From: Raja brachyura
Lineage: Eukaryota
Direction: 5' to 3'
Length of the DNA: 64,000 bases
Assembly (NCBI GenBank): GCA_963514005.1
Contig: OY740783.1
Location: forward strand, 62,310,001-62,374,000
Shown: piece by piece, positions 1,567 to 64,000 of the stretch
How the letters are laid out: the number at the start of each line of letters is the position of its first letter
Position numbering within the stretch: position 1 is the stretch's first letter
Made by a program: the position numbers and the translations under genes
Notes under the pieces: generated by a model
Databases searched by the model: none
What the model was told of the DNA's origin: nothing
Seen by the model: the letters and a program-made list of their open reading frames with translations, nothing else

Positions 1567-1916
1567 TAAGCATATGTTATGAAAGTAAGCATGCAGGTAC
1601 AGCAGGCAGTGAAGAAAACGAATGGCATGTTGGTCTTCATAACAAAAGGAGTTGAGTATAGGAGCAAAGAGGTCCTTCTACAGTTGTATAGGGCCCTAGT
1701 GAGACCACATCTGGAGTATTGTGTGCAGTTTTGGTCCCCTAATTTGAGGAAGGACATTGTGCAGCGTAGGTTCACAAGCACGCTGTCATATGCTGAGAGA
1801 ATGGAGTGGCTAGGCTTGTATACTCTGGAATTTAGAAGGATGAGAGGGGATCTTATTTAAACATAAAAGATTATTAAGGGTTGGACACGCTAGAGGCAGG
1901 AAATATGTTCCCGATG

Positions 1917-3176
1917 GTTACACAAAAAGCTGGAGAAACTCAGCGGGTGCAGCAGCATCTAAGGAGCGAAGGAGATAGGCGACGTTTCGGGTCGAGACCC
2001 TTCTTCAGACTGGTCAGGGATCAGGGAAACAAGAGATATAAACAGTGATGTGGAGAGATAAGGAACAATGAGTGAAAGATATGCAAAAAAGTATTGGTGA
2101 TAAAGGAAGCAGGCGATTGTAAGCTGTTTGTGGTGTGAAAATGAGAAGCTAGTGCGACTGGGGGGGGGGGGGGGGGGGGGGGGGGAGATGGAGAAGGAAT
2201 GTCAGGGCCAGAGGGCTGAGGGAGAGGTGGGGGGGGAGGCAGTCTGGGTTAACAGAATTGAGAAAATTCAATGTTTAAACCCAGAGGATGCAGACTCCCC
2301 AAGCAGAATACGAGGTGCTGTTCCTCCAACTTGCGGTGTTGATCACTCTGGCCGTGGAGGAGGCCCAGGACCGAGAGGTCGGATACGGAGTGGGAGGGGG
2401 AGTTGAAGTGCTGAGCCACCGGGAGGTCGGGTTGGTTATTGCGGACCGAGCGGAGGTGTTCGGCGAAACGATCGCCCAGCCTACGCTTGGTCTCACCGAT
2501 GTAGATCAGCTGGCATCTGGAGCAACGGATGCAGTAGATGAGGTTGGAGGAGGTGCAGGTGAACCTCTGTCGGACTTGGAATGACTGCTTGGGTCCCTGA
2601 AAGGATTGGATGGGGGAGGTGAAGGGACAAGTGTGGCATCTCTTGCGGTTGCAAGGGAAAGTGCCCGGGGAAGGAGTGGAGCGGGAGGGAAGGGAAGAAT
2701 TGACGAGGGAGTTGCGGAGGGAGCGGTCTTTGCGGAAGGCAGACGGGGGGAGATGGGAAGATGTGGCGAGTGGAGGGGTCACGTTGGAGGTGACGAAACT
2801 GGCGGAGGACTATCTGTTGTATGCGCTGGCTGGTGGGGTGAAAGGTGAGGACCAGGGGGACTCGGCCCTTGTTGTGAGTGGGGGAATGGGGAGAGAGGGC
2901 AGTGTTGCGGGGTATGGAGGAGACCCTGGTGCGAGCCTCATCTATAGTGGGGGAGGGGAAACCCCGTTCTCTGAAGAACGAGGACATTTGCGATGACCTG
3001 GTGTGGAACACGTCATCCTGGGAGCAGATGCGGCGTAGACGGAGGAATTGGGAATAGGGGATGGAGTCCTTACAGGAAGGCGCTCCTTCGCTCCTTAGAT
3101 GCTGCTGCACCCGCTGAGTTTCTCCAGCTTTTTGTGTAACCCTCGATTCTCCAGCATCTGCAGTTCCTTCTTTAAC
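1917..3176 (-). mobile_element. Penelope-like element (Neptune type), 5'-truncated, with an inverted terminal piece
   Basis: Minus-strand RT-thumb region (SIPYSQFLRLRRICS), Cys linker (CNRKRCHTC) and GIY-YIG endonuclease (NLIYCIRC...IYIGET), split by a frameshift near 2750. 15-bp TSD AATATGTTCCCGATG at 1902-1916 and 3177-3191. Confidence 0.93.
1981..2008 (-). ncRNA. Minimal hammerhead-ribozyme-like core in a PLE terminal repeat
   Basis: Minus strand reads CTGAAGA-A-GGGTCTCGACCC-GAAA-CGTC: CUGANGA, stem II, GAAA, GUC. Stem I pairing is weak. Confidence 0.7.
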
Positions 3177-3280
3177 AATATGTTCCCGATGTTGGGGGAG
3201 TCCAGAACCAGGGGCCACAGTTTAAGAATAAGTGGTATGGCATTTAGAATGGAGATGAGGAAACACTTATTCACACAGAG

Positions 3281-18880: not shown

Positions 18881-19189
18881 TACAAATTCCAATCTTCATT
18901 CCCTTGGACAACCAAATGAGGTAGAAGACACAAAGTGCCGGAGTAACTCAGCGGATCAGGCAGTATTTCTGGAGAACATGAATAGGTGATGTTTTGGGTT
19001 GAGACCCTTCTTCAGACTTAAAAAGCATCCGTTGTTCGTTGTATCTACAACCAAAAAAGGTGGATATCCTGATCACCTATTGTGCTGTGTGGAGGCCTTT
19101 CAAATGTTCCAGTGTCTTGGGCCATAAATTGTGCTGAATTTGTGCCTCGGGAGACTATTATCCAAAACAGTCATAGGATGTTAGTTAAC

Positions 19190-19474: not shown

Positions 19475-20070
19475 GTAATGAGGGTGTGGAAACATTGGAA
19501 AGGATACAAAAAATATTTACCAGGATGCTGCCTGGATTAGAGCATATTAGTTATGAGGAGAGATTGAACGTACCTGGATTGTTTTCCCAGAGATCTGATA
19601 GAAATATATAGAACTATGAGAGGCATAGATAGGGTAGATAGTCAGAATCTTTTTCCTCGGGTGGAAATGCGTCTGAGGAAGGGTCTTGACCTGAAACGTC
19701 ACCTATTCCTTCGCTCCATAGATGCTGCCTCATCCGCTGAGTTTCTCCAGCATTTTTGTCTACCAAAGACTACAGGGCATATTTTTAAGGTGAGAGGGGC
19801 AAAATTTAAAGGAGGCATGTGAAGCAAGTTTTTTTACAGAGATCGGCAAGTGCCTGGTATGTTCTGCCAGTCGTGGTGGTGGAGCTGATTTGACAGTAGC
19901 ATTTAAGAGGCTTTTTGATAGACCCATGGTTATGTAGGGAATAGAGGGTTAGAGATCACATTCGCTCAAAGGAGGGATATTGATCATGTGCACTTTAATT
20001 CAACATCATGTTCGGCCAGGACATTGTGGGCCGAATTGCATGGTCCTGTGCTGAGCCATTGTATGCTGTA
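19475..20070 (+). mobile_element. Older CR1 3' fragment
   Basis: MRGIDRVDSQNLFPRVE...TTGH.FKVRG remnants. Confidence 0.75.
19671..19763 (+). mobile_element. ~93-bp PLE-derived mini-insert inside an older CR1 fragment
   Basis: gtCTGAGGAAGGGTCTTGACCTGAAACGTC...catttttgtctac interrupts the CR1 reading (RVEM / KTTGH). No clear TSD. Confidence 0.75.
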
Positions 20071-26587: not shown

Positions 26588-28451
26588 AGGCTGGAGACTT
26601 ATTTTGAGCTGCCACAATGGTTACAGATTTTCATGGCATTAGCGATTACCGTGCTGACAGACTGTTTCCGTTGATCACATTTGAGATGACCAATTCATTG
26701 ATTGGGAATGCTTCAAATCTTTATCCCGTTCCTTGCCAAGGGCCCCCAAAGGTATGAGTCAATTCCAAAAGCCTTCTTGCAATGCCTACAGTTATTTTGA
26801 AGTGCTATTTCACTTCACTTGCAACTTGCCTCGTTTAAGGCATACTCAACTTTTATCTAGCTTATTGTAGCTGTTTGTGCAGTATGCTGGTGGGTGGGCT
26901 TTATGATTTATTATTCCTGTGCTGGTGATGTGTATTGTCATCTGATGGTAGGAATGTTCTATAAATCATCTATCGTCTCAATATAAAAAAATATTGTCCA
27001 CTTCACTGATAGACAGGAATTTTGTACTCAAAAGGACACGAGTGCTGGAGCAACTCAGCAAGTCAGGCAGCATCTCTGGAGAGCATGGATGGTTGACATT
27101 TCGGGTTGAGACCCTTCTTCAGATTGACTGTAGTGGGGGAGAGGCAGGACAAAGCGTGGCAATTAATGGTCAACACAGGCGAGGAGGTGGGGGGGGGGGG
27201 GGGGATTTGACATGTAGATCATTGGAATTTTGTATTGATCCAGGCTTATTTAGAGGGTTGATAAAAGCTTTTCATGCACAGATTAACAATCTATGATAAA
27301 TTGTCATTCATTAAGGATTCAAGGTAATAGAATTTGATCACTGCCTCAAGACTTATAAGCATTGTCAAGACTTATTGGTGATGACAGAGAAATAGCTTAT
27401 CACTGATGGTGATGATCAGGGAAAACATCCTGCAAGCACAAAAGGGGTCATCTAAGAGTAGTTGCCCTTCTTTATGAGTACAGGATGTAATACTGTCTAC
27501 AAGAAGATCATCGAGGAGTAAGTATTTCTTTTTAACTTGGCTTTTAGAATTTATAGAAAAATCAAGTTGGTGGATAACAAATCTTTAATAAAACTCTGCA
27601 GATCGAATACCATGACAATCAATGAGTAGAATATTGCAACATGTGGAAACGAGGAACTAGAGATGCTGGTTTACGCAAAAGAACACAGTGCTGCAGTAAC
27701 TCAGCGAGTTAGGCAGCATCTCTGGAGGACATGAATAGGTGATGTTTTGGTTTGGGAGACTTCTTCAGACAGATATTGTGATGTTATTTTCTCCCATTAT
27801 ACTAAGACTAAGAGTACTTTAGAAAATGATCATAAATTCTAGTAAATGTTTTGAGTGAGTTTTATCTCTCTAAGGTGACCAGTCAGCAAGTATAAAAAAT
27901 TGGGGCACATTTTCCCAGGGGGAGGGTGAAAGCTCGTGCCAGTGGAGATTGACTCCTGGTGTGGGATGATTGTGAGGGAGAATGGAAGAGGTTGAGCCCT
28001 GTAATGCAGGGTAGGAATGGCCGAGAAGGAGCATGAGAAAGGGAGATTCTGGTTTGGAGGGAAGGAGTGGAAAGGAAAGAAAGAATGGTGTGAGGCAGTG
28101 GAAGTGGAGTGAGGAGAATGAGTTCTGAAGTAAATATATGAGGCGGAAGTGAGGAGGGAGATGTTCAGGACGGTCTGAGGCAGTGTGGCAACATAATGGG
28201 TTATAGGTAGTCTATAGGACCCTCCAGTAGCAGTGTCTTTCTAAAATCGTCACTGAAAACTCTACACTTAAAAATCAAGGCAAAAGATATCCTGACAATT
28301 CTTTGATCAGGATGCAGATCATTACACCAGTCTTGGGCAAGTTCTGATATTATGGAGCCATCTGCCCACTCTATTAAACCCTTCCATTGAGATTACCATA
28401 CGGAGATCCATAAAGTGATTCTGTAGAATTTGTTCTTTACATTCGTGTGCG

Positions 28452-49270: not shown

Positions 49271-49748
49271 GTTATGTAATTGACACCAACATTTGTTGGC
49301 TATATCCACGGCAATGAATTGATCAAACATCTTATATGTGGCACCAGATCTCACATTATTTTGTTTGAACTTCTTTAGGATCACTTTGAAAACTGTCAAT
49401 GCCCCCAAATGCATCTGTTGTAACACAGCTTTCTAAGTTGTTAACCCTTAAAATAGGTAATTGAGATGTCACACTGATCCTCCACACTGACAAGTCTCTC
49501 AGAGGTTCTCCCAACTGTTGGAGTGGAGGGTCAGCAGACACACCATTGACATTTTTTGCCATGTCAATAAAGTGTTTGCTGAACGTGAGCTTAAGTACAA
49601 GGCAGATGTACACATTGCAAGTTCTAGGAAATGATAATAACTTAGTTTGATGAATCAGTGATCAGGTCATTGCTGCAGGAAAGTGAACAAATAAAATCTC
49701 AAAAAAAGCACATAAACGCTATGCTCTGTGACACCACTGTTTTCTTTG

Positions 49749-49853
49749 TCTGAAGACCTGTCTGAAGAAGGGTCTTGGCCCAAAAGGTCACCCATTCCTT
49801 CTCTCCAGAGATGCTGCCTGTCCCGCTGAGTTACTCCAGCATTTTTGGAATCT
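49749..49853 (+). mobile_element. 105-bp PLE-derived mini-insert
   Basis: 14-bp TSD CACTGTTTTCTTTG at 49735-49748 and 49854-49867. Begins with a doubled TCTGAAGA. Confidence 0.82.
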
Positions 49854-52800
49854 CACTGTTTTCTTTGAGTTGGATCTCCTCCAGGATTTGAGACCATAGT
49901 TTACACTGACACTGATGTCCATCAGGGAGGGAATGCTGTATCATCAAAGATCATCTTCTTTGACATTAAACTGAGAAATGTTTGCCCGGTTTCAATTCAT
50001 TTGAGGAATGTGAGCACTAAGGTGTAATTGAACTGAGGAAGCAGTCACAAGTCATCCAAATAGGGGGAAATAACAGATGTATTATTTCTTTATATGTTTT
50101 CAAAAAAAATGTTCACATAAAATAAAAATTAATGGGACTGAGGGCATCGGTAGATCATTAGTTAATGGGGAAAAATGCAGACTGGCAGGCTATTACTAGC
50201 AGTTCATTGCCTTGTTCTGCTAAGGTAAGTTAAGCGAAAGATAACTGGCCATTAAGATGTTCCTTTCCCTTTCATTTTGTAAGTAAAAATAAAAACAGAA
50301 AAACCGAGAAGGAGAAGCATTTACACTTATTCCAACAAGAGGTAATAGACCATGGGATTTTTATGTAACACACAAAGATGAAAGTGCTACTAAACTTCAT
50401 CCCAGCAGTTGGCATCCTGCTGTGGATCAACATAAAATCCCCAGAAAGAGGAGGATAGTCTGGCTCGGCCATCAAGACGAGCGGAAACATCTGCAGCTAA
50501 AACAGCTTCCAAACTGCAGGTCTTTATATACCTAAATAATTGGACTTGATAAACATAAGCCAGCTGCTGCAAGTAGCAGCTCTGCAAACAATATCTATGT
50601 AAATAATTTTGAGGTAATGCTCATTCAATGTGGACTTCATTGAATCCGGATTAATTTCACCTGGAGCTTTTATTCATAAGTAATGGTAATGATTCAACCG
50701 GGTCGCACCTAAGTGGCCATTGATAACTAGGTCTTTGAGTGGTTTGTTCAGACATATTATTTGCCTCATTTGTTGCTAAATTCTGTCCCCAGAAACGGAA
50801 TATGTGGTGGCTGCCAGCATGCCCAGGGTCTTCCCCTACTGGTGGCTCCCTGAGTGCCTGGGAGATAACACGAACACATGGAATAACATCTTGGTTTCAC
50901 TTATTTCATTCTTGAATAAAGTTTCTTGTAACAAACTACAATTCATGTTTTATGGCCCTTAAACATCTTTAAAAGAAAGAGAATGTTAAAAAATGGGAAA
51001 TACTCAAATCATGTGGCAGCCTTTGAATCCAAGTATCATTAGCAATACTTGAAAAAGAAATGTTGGGAATACCAAGTAGGCCAGGCAGCATCTGTGGAGG
51101 GAGAAACAATTAACAACTGAGGCTGATAATTTTGACCAAAATAATTCACCTTGCTGCCTGTATTTCAGTTTTCAGCAGCAACGGTATTTTGCTTTAGCAT
51201 TATTAGAAATACTAGATAGATTTTGTAAAAATATCTGTCATCCATCATTACTTCACAGTGAGATTTCTTTGAATACATATAATGGTTCAATTTTCATTGC
51301 AAATCAAGCCACCGATGAGGGAGGTACAAGGGATCACTTCAACTTGCTGCCGCGAATAATCTCCATGAGCACATTCGACAAATATAGAACCACATGATCC
51401 TTATGCTCGGCCAACTGCAATTAGTTCTTTCCATCAATAGGACGAAGGAAATATTACAAAAAAAAAACATATGCTTTTGTGCTTAATGCCAGATAGTCCC
51501 ATAGCAGGATGCATATTGCCAGAGGCAAAGTGGGTGACTTCTCAATCAGCACGGAGTCAAGAAACAAGGATCTATAATTATACATGGAGCCCAAATGGTA
51601 AAAGGCATCAATTAAGCAAACAGTCCTATCTACAGCGGTTAATGTGGTTTAGCTTTTTTTCCCCCAATATGCAAGGTTTTTGATTGGAGTCCAAAATAGT
51701 TGGGAAGCTTTCAGAACATTTATTTATTACTTGATCAGCCATCTGTAATTGTTACGAAGTAGAAGCAGGAGTAAGCCAGTCATTCCCTTGTGCCTTCACT
51801 GATATTTAATTATATCATGGCTGTTGTTTTACTTCTATACCACTTTCCAGTATTGACCTCTTGATTCTTTTAAAATCTAACATCTTATCAGTCTCATTTT
51901 TCGCAGGCGGGCCACATCTCCTATGATGCCAGGATAGATTGTATATCATTAATTACAATGACCTGGTCTTAAGTGTCAACCAAACTGGGTAAAGTGGATA
52001 TGGACAGAAAAAGTTCTTCCTCGAAGGACATTGGGGAACCTGATCAGCTTTAATGATAATGGTACACTTTCATGATTTCTGCTCTTGATGTTAGCTATTT
52101 ACTCCAGTTGTACTTAATTAGTTGTTTTTAAATTCCTCAGCTGCAATTGTGGGAGATGAGCTCAAGCCTTCAAAGTGAGCTGCTGGTCCAGTAACTCGAC
52201 CACAATGCCACTATATCCTGGAGATACTGCCTGGTACTTAGTTTAAAACACATATGCTTTAAATTCACTGCATAAAACTCACTGCATAAAACTTTACACA
52301 AAATGTTCTCCATGAATATTGATTTTGTTATTTACTAAGATCATGGAATATAGGAATGACAGACTATGGAGGAAGTTATCAGTTATTTCCTGGAGCTCTG
52401 CAAATAATCCCACTCCATTGTTTTCCCCATAAAGCTGACAATATTTTTCTCTTTAACTTCTCACTCTCTTGTTTACTATTGAATCTCTTCAGGCAATGAC
52501 TTCTAGGAAATCTTTCTGCGATTGATGAATGCTCTCATTGCCTAAAATTTCATCCCCAGATGATAGTGACACACACTATTACCAGCATCAATGAGTTGTT
52601 CTCTCCTCCCTAAATTCTGTCCATTCACCCAGGATGAAATTAAAGCCAAATGCTCTTTATTTCATCAAAGCCCTTCACAAGTGTCAACTTTTCCATTTAA
52701 TCACCTCCTAGTCTTCCACCTGTTTTTTCCTGGCAAGGGTGTCCCATTTTCAGAATAGAGGGGAAAAGATTTAAGGCTTAAATAAGCAAGAAGGCTTCAC

Positions 52801-53270: not shown

Positions 53271-53879
53271 CACCATAAGCCTCATAAACCTGACACGCTC
53301 ACAAACACATTGATTGGCAGAGCAGGTACAAAAGGCTAAATGGCAAACTCTTGCTCTTGCTTTCGATGTTTCTATGAAATACATTAAAAGTGTTTAAAAT
53401 ATAATTTACAATTTGTTCAAACTGCCGATATTCTGAAAAGGCGATTTTTAAGCTTACTGACTTTAGAATTTCTTTCTGTGTGTCCCTAAATTTTTCATTT
53501 CCTATGTTTTTTCACAGTTGCCAAAATGGGTTCAACCTTGCAGCATGTGAAGGATAGTGAAATGAGCACTAACTAAATATTTTATATTTCTTATTTTGCT
53601 TAGCAAAGTATGAACTCATTAATCAAATGGTAACAATGAACCAAGACCACATATATTGAGGCCATGCTACAATCAAGCTACCTGGCTTCACCTTGTACTG
53701 AAAAAAGAATCAGTGTAGAAAAGCCCCAATATACTAATATCAGTCTGAAGAAGGGTCTCGATCCGAAACATCAACTATCCCTGTTCTCCAGGGATGCTAC
53801 CTGATCTGCTGAGATACTTCAGCACTTTGTGTCTTTTTCTGATATACAGATATTATAATAATAATTTATTTTTTTTTAA

Positions 53880-54810: not shown

Positions 54811-54882
54811 AGCAGTGAGTGGTCTCGACCTGAAACATCGCTTGTCCATGATATCCAGAGATGCTGCAAGACCTGCTGAGTT

Positions 54883-54972
54883 TGAAGACGGTTTCGGCTC
54901 GAAACGTTGCCTATCTCCTTTGCTCCATAGATGCTGCTGCACGCGCTGAGTTTCTCCAGCATTTTGTGTACT
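54883..54972 (+). mobile_element. 90-bp PLE-derived mini-insert nested in an older copy of the same kind of tail
   Basis: TSD CTGCTGAGTT at 54873-54882 and 54973-54982. Starts TGAAGA; the core is degenerate. Confidence 0.8.
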
Positions 54973-55349
54973 CTGCTGAGTTACTCCATCACTTTGAGTT
55001 CTTTTTATAGCAACCAGCATCTACAGTTTCTTGTTTCAAGAAGTGAAAGCCAACGATCCATGAATTTTTCCCCATTCGTAGGAAAAAAAAGGTACAAAAT
55101 GCTGGAGTACTTCAGCGGATGTTGCAGTATCACTGGAGAACATAAATAGGTGACATTTTGGGTTTGGAGTATTCTTCAGACTGATTGTGGTGGGGTGGGT
55201 AGAGAGGAGGGGCTGGACAAAGTCTGGCAAATGTTAGGTGGATACAGGTGAGGAGGTTTTGGATAGGTAGATGGTTGGACAAAAGCCAGAGAAGAAAAGA
55301 CTAAAGGTATAAGATAAGTGGAAGATGTGTAAATTGTGAAGCCAATGGT

Positions 55350-57830: not shown

Positions 57831-58321
57831 CTATAACATGACAGTTATAGTGTTAGGCAGTCATACAGCACAGAAACAGGTTCTTCGGCCCACTTGCTCA
57901 TGCAGCCAAGCTGCCCCATCAACACTCACCCACCTTTTTGGTCCATGTCCCTCTAAATCATTGCTGTCTCGCCATTACTGAGTCAAATTCCTGCAACTCC
58001 TCACAACAGAGAGAAAAGTACAATTGAAGAGAAAGATTTCTTAGAAAACATTTGATGTAAAGGCAGGAGGTGATAGCATGGAAATGCTGATGGGTTCTTC
58101 CGATTGAGGCATAGTGCCTGCTGGGCTGCGATTCCTATGGTGCAATACTGCTCCCCGTCACCGGCAGGCAGACTAGAAGAAGTCAACGATCAGCACCACC
58201 AACAGCACATGGCTGCCGGAAAATGTCGGCACTCTTGACCGAGCTGAGGCTACAGTCAAATGAGCCACAGCTGGGTCCAGTTAGTGGTTATTGGATCAAC
58301 TCACATGTACCTTATCAGCCT

Positions 58322-59112
58322 GTTAAAGAAGGAACTGCAGATGCTGGAGAATCGAGGGTACACAAAAGGCTGGAGAAACTCAGCGGGTGCAGCAGCATCT
58401 AAGGAGCGAAGGAGATAGGCGACGTTTCGGGTCGAGACCCTTCTTCAGACTGGTTAGGGATCAGGGAAATGAGAGATAGGGGTGGAGCGGGAGGGAAGGG
58501 AGGAATTGACTGCTCCAGATGCCAGCTGATCTATATCGGTGAGACCAAGTGGAGGCTTGGCGATCGATTCGCCGAACACCTCCGCTCGGTCCGCAATAAC
58601 CAACCCGACCTCCCGGTGGCTCAGCACTGCAACTCCCCCTCCCATTCCGTATCCGACCTCTCGGTCCTGGGCCTCCTCCACGGCCAGAGTGAGCAACACC
58701 GCAAGTTGGAGGAACAGCACCTCATATTCCGCTTGGGGAGTCTGCATCCTCTGGGCTTGAACATTGAATTTTCTCAATTCTGTTAACCCTTGCTGTCTCC
58801 TCCCCTTCCCACCTCTCCCTCAGCCCTCGGGCCCTGGCATTCCCTCTCTCTCTATCTCTCCCCCACCCAAGTCGCTCTAGCTTCTCATTTTCACACTACA
58901 AACAGCTTACAATGGCCTGTTTCCTTTATCATCAATACTTTTTTGCATATCTTTCATTCATTGTTCTTTATCTCTCCACATCACCGTCTATATCTCTTGT
59001 TTCCCTGATCCCTAACCAGTCTGAAGAAGGGTCTCGACCCAAAATGTCGCCTGTCTCCTTCGCTCCGTAGATGCTGCTGCACCAGCTGAGTTTCTCCAGC
59101 CTTTTGTGTACC
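58322..59112 (+). mobile_element. Penelope-like element of the same young family as 1917-3176, with an inverted 5' piece
   Basis: GIY-YIG ORF remnant 58469-58786 nearly identical to 2249-2530. 14-bp TSD TACCTTATCAGCCT at 58308-58321 and 59113-59126. Confidence 0.93.
58421..58448 (-). ncRNA. Minimal hammerhead-ribozyme-like core (perfect copy)
   Basis: Identical to 1981-2008. Confidence 0.7.
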
Positions 59113-61169
59113 TACCTTATCAGCCTACCCCTTATAAACGCTTGAGTTCCAGCCCAAGGGAAGAACAGGAAGTAAGCAGGGACAGGAAGGAAGAAGGGAC
59201 AGGAAGAAAGAAGGGACAGGAAGAAAGCAAGAGAAAATGGAAGAGCCCCTATTATGTGTGCCTCTTTTCGCAGGCTTGGAAGAAGCCTGAGACCACCAGC
59301 ACCTCCTCTTGAGGCTAGGGTGAGCTGCTGGGAAAAAATCCAAGATAGTCAGTGCCTCCTCACTGATGATGAAGGAACTGGCCCTTCTTGTGACTATTGT
59401 CGATCTTTATAAACAAACCATTACATGAGTACACCCTACTGTGAGTATCAGTATAGTCATTGTCAACCCGGTGTCATCTCCGATGTCACAATGGGCATCT
59501 GTGCAAAATGGAAAGGAAATACGGATCAATAACAAAGGAATAGAGGCACATGAGGAACGTTAATTCTTTCATGGGAAGGGAAACAGATTTGTAATCAAGA
59601 TGGGGAGCAAGTTAATGCAAGTCTTATCCTCACAGAGAATATAGATGGTAATATTATAAACAACATCCTTTTATTAAAAGCAGAAATGGAGAAAGTAGAC
59701 AGATGAAGATTTAAAAAACTGCAGAAAATAATCCGTGGCAAAAACATTTAGTCAGACATTGAGATATGCAATGGTGTTGAGAGATAACATTTGGCACAAA
59801 ATGACTATGGTGATAATATAAAGAGGAGGCTGGAATGCAAATAATCTTTCGACCAGAAGCAATATCTAAATAAAAGTAATGGTTATCCATCGGTTTGACA
59901 GGTCACTTAAATTACGTACTGTAGATTCATCAAAGATGAAGTTGCAATACTTTTCATTATAGATGTATAAATTAAATTATTTGGACAAACATTTCCTGGA
60001 TAACATCAAACCAATTTATTGCCTGCAGTTGACTTATCGAATAAATCAGGGCCTTTACTTTGTGCCTTTTCTTTGACATTTGATATATATCCTTTTTAAA
60101 AGCGGACTGCTAAAGCATTTCAGTAAAATCAGAAAAGGGACAAGTTATCTAAGAGTACATCAATGCCAGTATAATAAAGTAGAATAATAAGCATAGTAAC
60201 ATTGAATCGAATTTGTGGTAATTGTTGGGGACACTCTGGCTTTGTCTTTAAATTATGTTGAAAAACAGTATTTTAATTTATACTGTAAGCCCAGAGATCT
60301 GCATCTCAGTACGGTGGTTGCACTGCAGTTGTTTTAACTTTGGTTTTTGCCTAATCGTGGTCTAGTTTACTTAGAATTACTGATAATTTATTGTATATTT
60401 ATTGTTGTGGTTGCGTGTAATGTGCCTGTAAAGCTCCAGCAAGTAGGGATTTCATTGTTCAGGTTCATATCCAGTGCATATGACAAATAAACACTCTCTT
60501 GCTTTCAACCATCAATAAAAACTAATCAGAAACAAATGACTGGTTATTCTTCAGGTCATTTAAAAGCATATTTGTTTTCTGAATCATTACAAAATACACG
60601 ATAAATACACCAGGAATTGTCTATGAATGAATTGAAAATGTACCATTTGGTTTCCATGGCACCAAGAAATCCTTCATACATCAGTGTGGGAAATTAACAC
60701 ATTTGTGGTTCTGAAAGGACTAAAATTGTTCCCTTCTTTTATGTGTTTCAAACATGAAACAATCAAAATTTGGCTCCTACTTATTTACCAAATATCCCAA
60801 ATGGAAAATAGAAATTTGTACTTTCATATATGTGTGTATGTTGCCCGTTTATTTGTGAAATATCCATAGACATTGAAAGACGCTAAAAAAAAGATCGTTT
60901 TATCTATGCAAAGCTGTTTTGCTAAATCAAATAATATTTTAGTAGAGCTGAAGGAAAATGATTTTGTGTTGAACGGTCTTATTACTGAACCAATAAATGC
61001 CTCTGTTAATCTGATAACCATGAAATGATTTATTTCTCATAACATTCTCTATCTTTGCCATCATGAAGCATTAATCTCATTCGAAATAAAGGATAAAATC
61101 AGGAAAACCAAGCAATCCATCCAGTTTAGTTAATAACAAGAGTTAGCACATCACATCTTCCCCTTTAAA

Positions 61170-63790: not shown

Positions 63791-63806
63791 TAATCAATTG
63801 TATGTT

Positions 63807-63895
63807 ACACAAAAAGCTGGAGAAACTCAGCGGGTGCAGCAGCATCTAAGGAGTGAAGGAGATAGGCGACGTTTCGGGTCGAGACCCTTCTTCAG
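63807..63895 (-). mobile_element. 89-bp PLE-derived mini-insert (hammerhead core plus tail)
   Basis: Perfect core at 63868-63895. Direct repeat AATCAATTGTATGTT at 63792-63806 and 63896-63910. Confidence 0.85.
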
Positions 63896-64000
63896 AATCA
63901 ATTGTATGTTTTGTGTGCCTTCCTTTCCAGCATCTCATTGCCTGACCCAGGATTGATCGTATTTATGCTTCTCACCAGTCCACTGTCAACACCTGACCAA

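Follow-up and report, generated by a model that had tools for sequence, protein, structure and literature searches.

Across the genome of the skate Raja brachyura, short copies of a Penelope-like tail begin close to the catalytic CTGA of a hammerhead ribozyme motif. The question raised by the stretch analysed here (64,000 nt of contig OY740783.1, positions 62,310,001 to 62,374,000; hereafter the window) is what sets this 5′ boundary. A preliminary description had offered two answers: a defined, tiny non-autonomous RNA unit mobilised by a Penelope-like element (PLE), or a strong stop or template-release site for reverse transcriptase (RT) at the ribozyme fold.

Short inserts and their parent element

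We number the unit from the T of TCTGAAGAAGG (TCTGAAG), which is +1 and directly follows -1; cleavage at the GUC would fall after +29. About two dozen related Penelope-like pieces lie within the window, and those discussed here are given in Table 1. The target site duplications (TSDs) described earlier for the inserts at 63807, 54883 and 49749 are exact, with the lengths and positions given. The first of these does start at CTGAAG on the minus strand, except that the T before it is also the last base of the TSD; this copy lacks most of the 5′ strand of helix I. An empty site was found for it in contigs from three of four other DNA runs, where 63791 is joined to 63896. The 104 nt skipped correspond to the insert plus one TSD, and the 15 letters fit either side. 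The first 12 nt of the 49749 insert (49749–49760) are a degenerate re-copy of the unit 5′ end. For the copy at 19671–19763 the best candidate TSD was a 4-nt match, and at the 53741, ~19018 and ~27770 copies nothing above 6 nt was found. Contigs of RNA runs, some of them probably DNA, have loose ends at 2010–2012 and a depth drop there, consistent with the boundary but not indicative of an RNA start.

Table 1. Positions of Penelope-like inserts and associated features in the window
Feature	Position	Strand	Remarks
Stand-alone short insert, unit +2 to +90	63807..63895	-	89 nt; hammerhead core, stem II, GAAA-C-GTC, tail to short 3′ end
Left TSD of the 63807 insert, 15 bp	63792..63806		3 terminal bases overlap the element 3′ end
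Right TSD of the 63807 insert, 15 bp	63896..63910		63896 also serves as +1 (T of TCTGAAG)
Minimal hammerhead motif, predicted	63868..63895	-	CTGAAGA 63895-63889; stem II 63887-63876; GAAA 63875-63872; GTC 63870-63868
Short insert, older subfamily, begins at +3	54883..54972	+	90 nt; 10-bp TSD 54873-54882, 54973-54982; nested in older tail copy
Short insert	49749..49853	+	105 nt; 14-bp TSD 49735-49748, 49854-49867
Short copy beginning at -1, inside another repeat	19671..19763	+	Starts GTCTGAGG
Older tail copy, homology stops at about -5	53741..53835	+	No TSD found
Older tail copy, homology stops at about -2	18925..19018	-	No TSD found
Older tail copy, long 3′ end, homology stops at about -1	27652..27772	-	No TSD found
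Long arm of young head-to-head insertion, +94 to -1061	1916..3079	-	Tail, hammerhead, pseudo-LTR, 3′ ORF with GIY-YIG (2249-2809)
Inverted short arm, partner of 1916..3079, +36 to +130 (long 3′ end)	3083..3177	+	15-bp TSD spanning the pair, 1902-1916 and 3177-3191
Initiator-like CCAGTCT, -4 to +3, putative transcription start	2007..2013	-	Seen in long copy; function inferred
Second head-to-head pair, longer arms (about -29 and about -505)	58321..59113		One long, one short 3′ end

By sequence, the motif fits a minimal type I hammerhead (CUGAnGA, stem II, GAAA, GUH) in all but the length of helix I. Among 105 copies of all ages, picked for a near-intact core, CTGAnGA is present in 75, GAAA in 67 and the stem II pairs in 75–88. 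A helix I of 4–5 bp is not seen: pairs 1 and 2 form in 74 and 72 of the 105 copies, and pairs 3 and 4 in 23 and 29. An Rfam scan of the window returned no hammerhead match.

The copy at 1916–3079 retains the GIY-YIG frame, and its 150 scored genomic matches are 94–100% identical. A near full-length copy of ~3.8 kb (locus L056) has a 911-aa open stretch in which DKG, YIDD, a CX4CX2C linker and, at the C terminus, GIY-YIG occur in one ORF. Pfam matches to RVT_1 (E 8e-5) and GIY-YIG (E 1e-3) are both below the Pfam cut-offs. On these motifs the parent is an EN+ Penelope-like element (RT plus C-terminal GIY-YIG), in agreement with the preliminary description. The linker, CNRKRCYTC at residue 778 of 911, corresponds to the CX2-5CxxC between RT and EN that defines the Neptune clade and is common to Nematis too (PMC8557442). 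Hence, judged by this motif, the element is Neptune-like. Among named proteins, its nearest relatives come from sharks and rays (63–74% identity).

The family is abundant. In the 2.7-Gb genome, where counts were made with exact sequence patterns, 30,668 perfect matches to the 51-nt young tail were counted. A sample of 800 random kb contained 280 tail pieces of any age, which extrapolates to ~0.9 million. Pseudo-LTRs, partial tandems (L363, L342, L349) and inverted 5′ copies, including 38 head-to-head pairs, are all present. The optional 30–40-bp tail, a known PLE trait, appears here as two 3′-end groups. The long ORF appears to begin at ~+164, after the tail. In L363, a short frame across the tail starts from an upstream ATG at +52, and the likely ORF ATG (~+163) overlaps a donor-like AAG/GTATGC. 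The short 3′ end of most young tails, TAACCC (1914–1919 of the window, minus strand), resembles the telomere C-strand; the likeness may be chance, because older subfamilies lack TAACCC. Many inserts are nested in other repeats, including older PLE tails (54821–55017, 1571–3250, 19600–19900); one host repeat we take to be CR1-like. The window also has an exon at 1400–1519, and its repeats appear to sit in introns of that gene, presumably a Trk-family receptor kinase, a segment of which the translation resembles by eye.

Where the copies begin and end

Young tails were collected with a 49-nt anchor (at most 2 mismatches) and mapped on the L056 reference. Of 317 copies, 83 that had been picked for their junction letters and 38 at loci chosen for an ORF were removed to give 196, and removal of 13 duplicates left 183. 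Most of the sampled tails come from the first 4.7 Mb of C1 and neighbouring loci. The 5′ ends fall at +2 to -4 in 90 of the 196 tails and in 81 of the 183. Per base, the end rate is 12.8% in this interval versus 0.20% at -7 to -500, a ~64-fold difference. The other ends in the de-duplicated set comprise 29 at +3 to +14 (1.5% per base), 4 at +15 to +29 (0.16%), 9 at +30 to +43 (0.36%) and 34 at -7 to -500. Apparent clusters at -166 and -212 to -216 proved to be alignment stops in C-runs and were re-anchored.

The share is lower in a random subset drawn from 80 random 10-kb loci, where 6 of 23 ends lie in the cluster. Genome-wide, the upstream ACCAG is kept in 11,306 of 29,646 exact cores; mutation alone is expected to remove it from 4–10%. 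This count agrees with the larger sample. Older subfamilies behave similarly: upstream homology is missing in 85 of 125 copies and the consensus fades at -4/-5, although long copies may be under-called. We conclude that the focusing of 5′ ends is real, genome-wide and far above chance. Thus the claim of a non-random focus stands, and so does the claim that the boundary is not the GUC cleavage site, since one of 196 ends is at +30. The boundary is not exactly at CTGA, as had been proposed; it spans +2 to -4 and often includes the upstream CAG.

At the other end, 118 of the 196 tails stop at +92–98 and 77 at +125–130 or beyond. The short inserts therefore form two size classes, of ~90 and ~130 nt, the second of which was absent from the earlier account of stand-alone units of ~90–105 nt. 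That account holds for copies bounded by TSDs, but these solos are 31 of the 90 copies in the peak; 42 are arms of head-to-head pairs, 16 are unresolved and 1 is cut off. TSDs are mostly 9–17 bp. An exact TSD of at least 9 bp was found in 6 of 105 copies of all ages versus 1 of 120 controls.

The full set of 317 copies yielded 38 head-to-head pairs, among them L162 and L278, which represent a single duplicated composite. In 36 of the 38, an arm with the short 3′ end is paired with an arm that has the long one (p 3e-9 against 50%). Most pairs have a 10–17-bp TSD spanning both arms, both arms begin at -6 to +5 in 19 of the 38, and several are joined via the near-palindrome CAG-T-CTG. One head-to-head composite recurs with identical flanks at five loci (L162, L272, L278, L286, L287), which indicates amplification inside another repeat or duplication.

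Units that continue into the ORF share the boundary. The tail runs on into the ORF region in 631 exact copies in the genome. Of 51 distinct units mapped from these, 17 start at +2 to -6, 9 at +3 to +14, 15 further 3′ and 10 past -6. One (L362) starts at -3, passes through the ORF with an internal deletion and reaches the 3′ tail. In 13 of 32 composites, ORF sequence that ends at +186 to +231 adjoins, with a few additional bases between them, a unit that begins at +1 to -6. These read as jumps made by the RT after arrival at the boundary. Jumps also depart from random upstream ends, landing at ~+206 to +267, so that jumping is not limited to the peak. Tandem units of ~190, 328 and 311 nt (L330; L357; G000:C1:162939575-162940229) contain hammerhead, tail and ORF start, with the junction recurring in L330 and L357. 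At L324, L325, L326 and L335, a young-family ORF start is joined to an older-subfamily pseudo-LTR; nesting, or a jump from the RNA of one subfamily to that of another, could account for this.

Letters adjoining the boundary are enriched for G. Before -1, 3,818 cores have G versus 2,792 with C or T, 2.3 times the background ratio of 0.60. Before -2, 2,214 have G versus 706 with T, 3.0 times the background of 1.04. Much of this excess has sources other than a cap, namely inverted arms and 12-nt re-copies giving GG. By eye, the G at about half of 30 GAG loci is the terminal base of an inverted arm. The re-copy occurs at 8 of 30 GG loci, two of them uncertain on inspection, versus none of 90 others, and runs through the GTCT common to -1 to +3 and +12 to +15. 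We also compared junctions with a defined partner (TSD or ORF). An untemplated G adjoins 13 of 30 peak ends versus 3 of 24 upstream ends (p=0.018; 54 junctions, a few mis-extended rows included); for solos only, the counts are 7 of 18 and 1 of 20. Clean single-G cases are L171, L183/L265, L212, L214, L263, L267, L276 and L289. An untemplated 5′ G has been taken as a cap sign for L1 and SVA, as described in PMC4859970. A general preference for C in end-addition by the RT would mimic this result.

Origin of the 5′ boundary

The interpretation we consider likely, with some reserve, is that short inserts are run-off cDNAs of Penelope-like RNA, primed internally and ending at the RNA 5′ end. Briefly, an element-encoded endonuclease would make a staggered cut in the target, mostly of 9–17 nt, as the TSDs suggest. 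The RT would prime at +93–97 or +128–130, where the 3′ ends are seen, and copy to an RNA 5′ end at about -6 to -1, at the CCAGTCT where ends cluster and where we infer a capped transcription start. The cDNA would then be joined to the target as a solo, paired with cDNA of the other strand (often via CAG-T-CTG), re-copied over 12 nt, or transferred by a jump. These products are all seen; their order is presumed. Run-off lengths would be ~95 or ~132 nt. Long copies may result from priming on the 3′ copy of a read-through RNA, or from homology-guided transfer to the RNA 3′ end.

Several observations speak for run-off: the cluster itself, its occurrence in older subfamilies and the same start in ORF-linked units, together with the G excess at junctions, the composites from ORF to boundary, the 12-nt re-copies and the short/long pairs. 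In vitro, an anole element has two internal priming sites and extends both target strands; it requires RNA ~55 nt 3′ of the start site, while hammerhead cleavage is dispensable (PMC11167929). In the skate transcript, the 5′ tail copy has the corresponding downstream RNA, so that, reasoning from those data, the RT would prime there. Likewise, the 36 of 38 short/long pairs match the two RT start sites, both-strand extension and predicted dimer of that study. More tentatively, and with rather less confidence than we place in run-off itself, an RT dimer might prime both cut ends at two fixed sites, strong-stop at the transcription start and jump to complete the copy. The search for a jump scar in long copies gives this no support: an extra G was found in 2 versus 0 in the control, which neither demonstrates nor rules out strand transfer.

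The putative start site has mixed credentials. A rotifer pseudo-LTR is described as having an Inr-like TCACT 20 bp after its TATA (PMC3846280). The TATA-like word at ~-30 of the skate element is weak, and one subfamily lacks it; this counts against run-off, as do the 8 words of the initiator consensus YYANWYY that lie within -330 to +128.

An unlikely alternative is that the RNA continues upstream, as a multimeric, read-through or circular molecule, and that the RT pauses at -4 to +2, blocked by protein or structure. The helix I strand, or the pyrimidine tract with AG, could be the block, at which ~60% of passes would end and 40% proceed. Long copies are indeed seamless at the boundary, which coincides with the 2-bp helix I. 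Upstream pass-through is similar in ORF-linked units that reach +2 (10 of 27) and in all tails (53 of 134). Moreover, the available accounts of Drosophila virilis Penelope place its start elsewhere, 46+75 nt upstream of the matching boundary (PMC2377424, PMC4209133). The G enrichment adjoining the boundary argues against a pause, as does RNA folding, which predicts no stable structure (z 0.18–1.14, no better than shuffles). A fold should also stop the RT on its own 3′ side. Since the RT arrives from that side, where stops are rare (0.16–0.36% per base), the earlier suggestion of a stop at the ribozyme fold is disfavoured. Its companion, template release, fits run-off.

A dedicated short non-coding RNA (about -3 to +130 or +260), with an internal promoter and mobilised in trans like a SINE, is improbable. 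Short copies are very numerous, 31 of 196 young tails are TSD-bounded solos, and an internal promoter is described for D. virilis Penelope (PMC2377424). The jump landings at +186 to +267 could be 3′ ends of such an RNA, and tandem units of ~190–330 nt exist. However, short and long copies (77 and 55 unselected) have common haplotypes. No private variants of short copies were found, the single apparently enriched variant being the duplicated composite L162/L278. Thus TSD-bounded insertion with an empty site elsewhere is seen, but not a master lineage with its own diagnostic variants. ORF-bearing copies also have the identical 5′ end, and the anole protein requires RNA 3′ of its start site (PMC11167929), which is missing from solos that end at +95. 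Because private variants are lacking, the short copies look like by-products of the autonomous RNA rather than a SINE, and the proposed non-autonomous unit does not hold as a lineage of its own.

Splicing fares worse. Were CAG/TC the 3′ splice site of a Penelope 5′ intron, the ends would mark spliced RNA. A pyrimidine tract and YAG do precede +1 in the subfamilies seen, and the D. virilis intron is described as terminating at helix I (PMC4209133). Nevertheless, ends often retain the would-be intronic bases (50 at -1 to -3 versus 24 at +1/+2). There is no common exon 1 upstream, with 0 'direct' cases in the peak and random composition beyond -4. Neither a GTRAG-type donor within 470 nt upstream nor a +162-to-+1 junction was found. 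We regard this very improbable model as largely refuted.

That hammerhead self-cleavage generates the 5′ end is barely credible, and is refuted for the main peak, which lies ~30 nt upstream of the GUC with one end at +30; a second GTC at -1 to +2 would yield ends at +3, where there are only 2. Cleavage may hold for the minor group at +30 to +43, where the end rate slightly exceeds that at +15 to +29. These 9 of 183 ends, just past the GUC, are nearly all in inverted pairs and could reflect cleaved RNA. Finally, an artefact of subfamilies diverging upstream of CTGA is practically out of the question: upstream sequence does vary among subfamilies, but the test was made inside one young family, the ATCAG of another subfamily was found in 0 of 65 exact cores checked, and TSD-bounded copies and the empty site fix the boundaries.

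Relation to known systems

A close comparison is the Poseidon element from Anolis carolinensis (PAc; Frangieh et al. 2024, PMC11167929). Both elements combine RT with a C-terminal GIY-YIG and have a pseudo-LTR hammerhead, two AC-rich internal sites of RT initiation separated by the length of a tail, and extension of both target strands. The skate element differs in its CX4CX2C linker and in its ORF, which appears to start at ~+164 after the tail, while that of PAc starts inside stem II. In the main text on PAc, no clustering of 5′ ends is reported, nor are the two start sites matched to the two DNA ends.

The minimal hammerheads described for metazoan PLEs (Cervera and de la Pena 2014, PMC4209133) share the CUGAnGA core, the extra base before stem II and a palindromic AC/GT in place of helix III. 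Most metazoan motifs are reported there as single, dispersed and 'probably related to truncated PLEs'. By comparison, the skate helix I is 2 bp, as in D. virilis, and the single copies share a sharp 5′ boundary and TSDs. Penelope of D. virilis and the Pen families of Adineta vaga are described as having similar partial tandems, inverted pseudo-LTRs, head-to-head palindromes, a one-arm tail and a promoter in the pseudo-LTR (PMC2377424, PMC3846280). The D. virilis element differs, on the available accounts, in a start ~120 nt upstream and an intron ending at helix I (PMC2377424, PMC4209133). Head-to-head palindromes were ascribed in those sources to self-priming on antisense RNA (PMC2377424, PMC3846280). 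For the skate pairs we favour priming from both target ends.

Non-LTR retrozymes are, like the skate inserts, non-coding hammerhead units from PLE pseudo-LTRs with dispersed monomers (PMC7229834; bioRxiv 10.64898/2026.07.22.740005). As described there, each retrozyme unit carries a ribozyme, the units are arranged in tandem and the RNA is circular; the skate inserts are 90–135-nt monomers or form inverted pairs, and helix I is often missing. Tandem arrays in which every unit has a full hammerhead are not what we find: the short inserts are solos or inverted pairs, with few tandem composites (L330, L357). The jump composites could be retrozyme precursors, and retrozyme-like tandem arrays may derive from them.

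Minus-strand strong-stop DNA of LTR elements similarly involves priming near the RNA 5′ end, run-off and transfer. The proposed skate cycle would differ in that the primer is cut target DNA, not tRNA, and the run-off product itself is integrated in huge numbers. In L1 twin priming, as described in PMC4859970, inversion results from priming from both target strands and a 5′ extra G occurs. Unlike either system, the two strands of the skate element appear to use two fixed start sites.

Dispersed single hammerheads, the one-arm tail, head-to-head palindromes, TATA and Inr in one pseudo-LTR, and retrozymes from PLEs are already known, as described in PMC4209133, PMC2377424, PMC3846280, PMC7229834 and PMC8857657. 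In the literature searched we found no mention of 5′ ends peaking at the hammerhead, of arms with short and long 3′ ends being paired, or of any strong-stop model; such short families may be listed in sources outside that search, namely Repbase and the majority of subscription papers.

The feature is real and strong and belongs to a known element class; what is new is the light that the ends throw on the replication cycle. Run-off would help to explain how terminal repeats are rebuilt. If the more tentative RT-dimer reading is true, one scheme would explain the tail, the head-to-head repeats, how pseudo-LTRs are regenerated and how retrozyme-like tandems arise. The abundant young family yields countable predictions: capped ends at -6 to -1, run-off products of ~95 and 132 nt, and the use of a single start site at each DNA end. 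For annotation, the ~0.9 million extrapolated tail pieces belong with PLE fragments, not SINEs. The PLE cycle would be target-primed yet include LTR-like strand transfer, and the skate genome would hold a record of tens of thousands of its intermediates.
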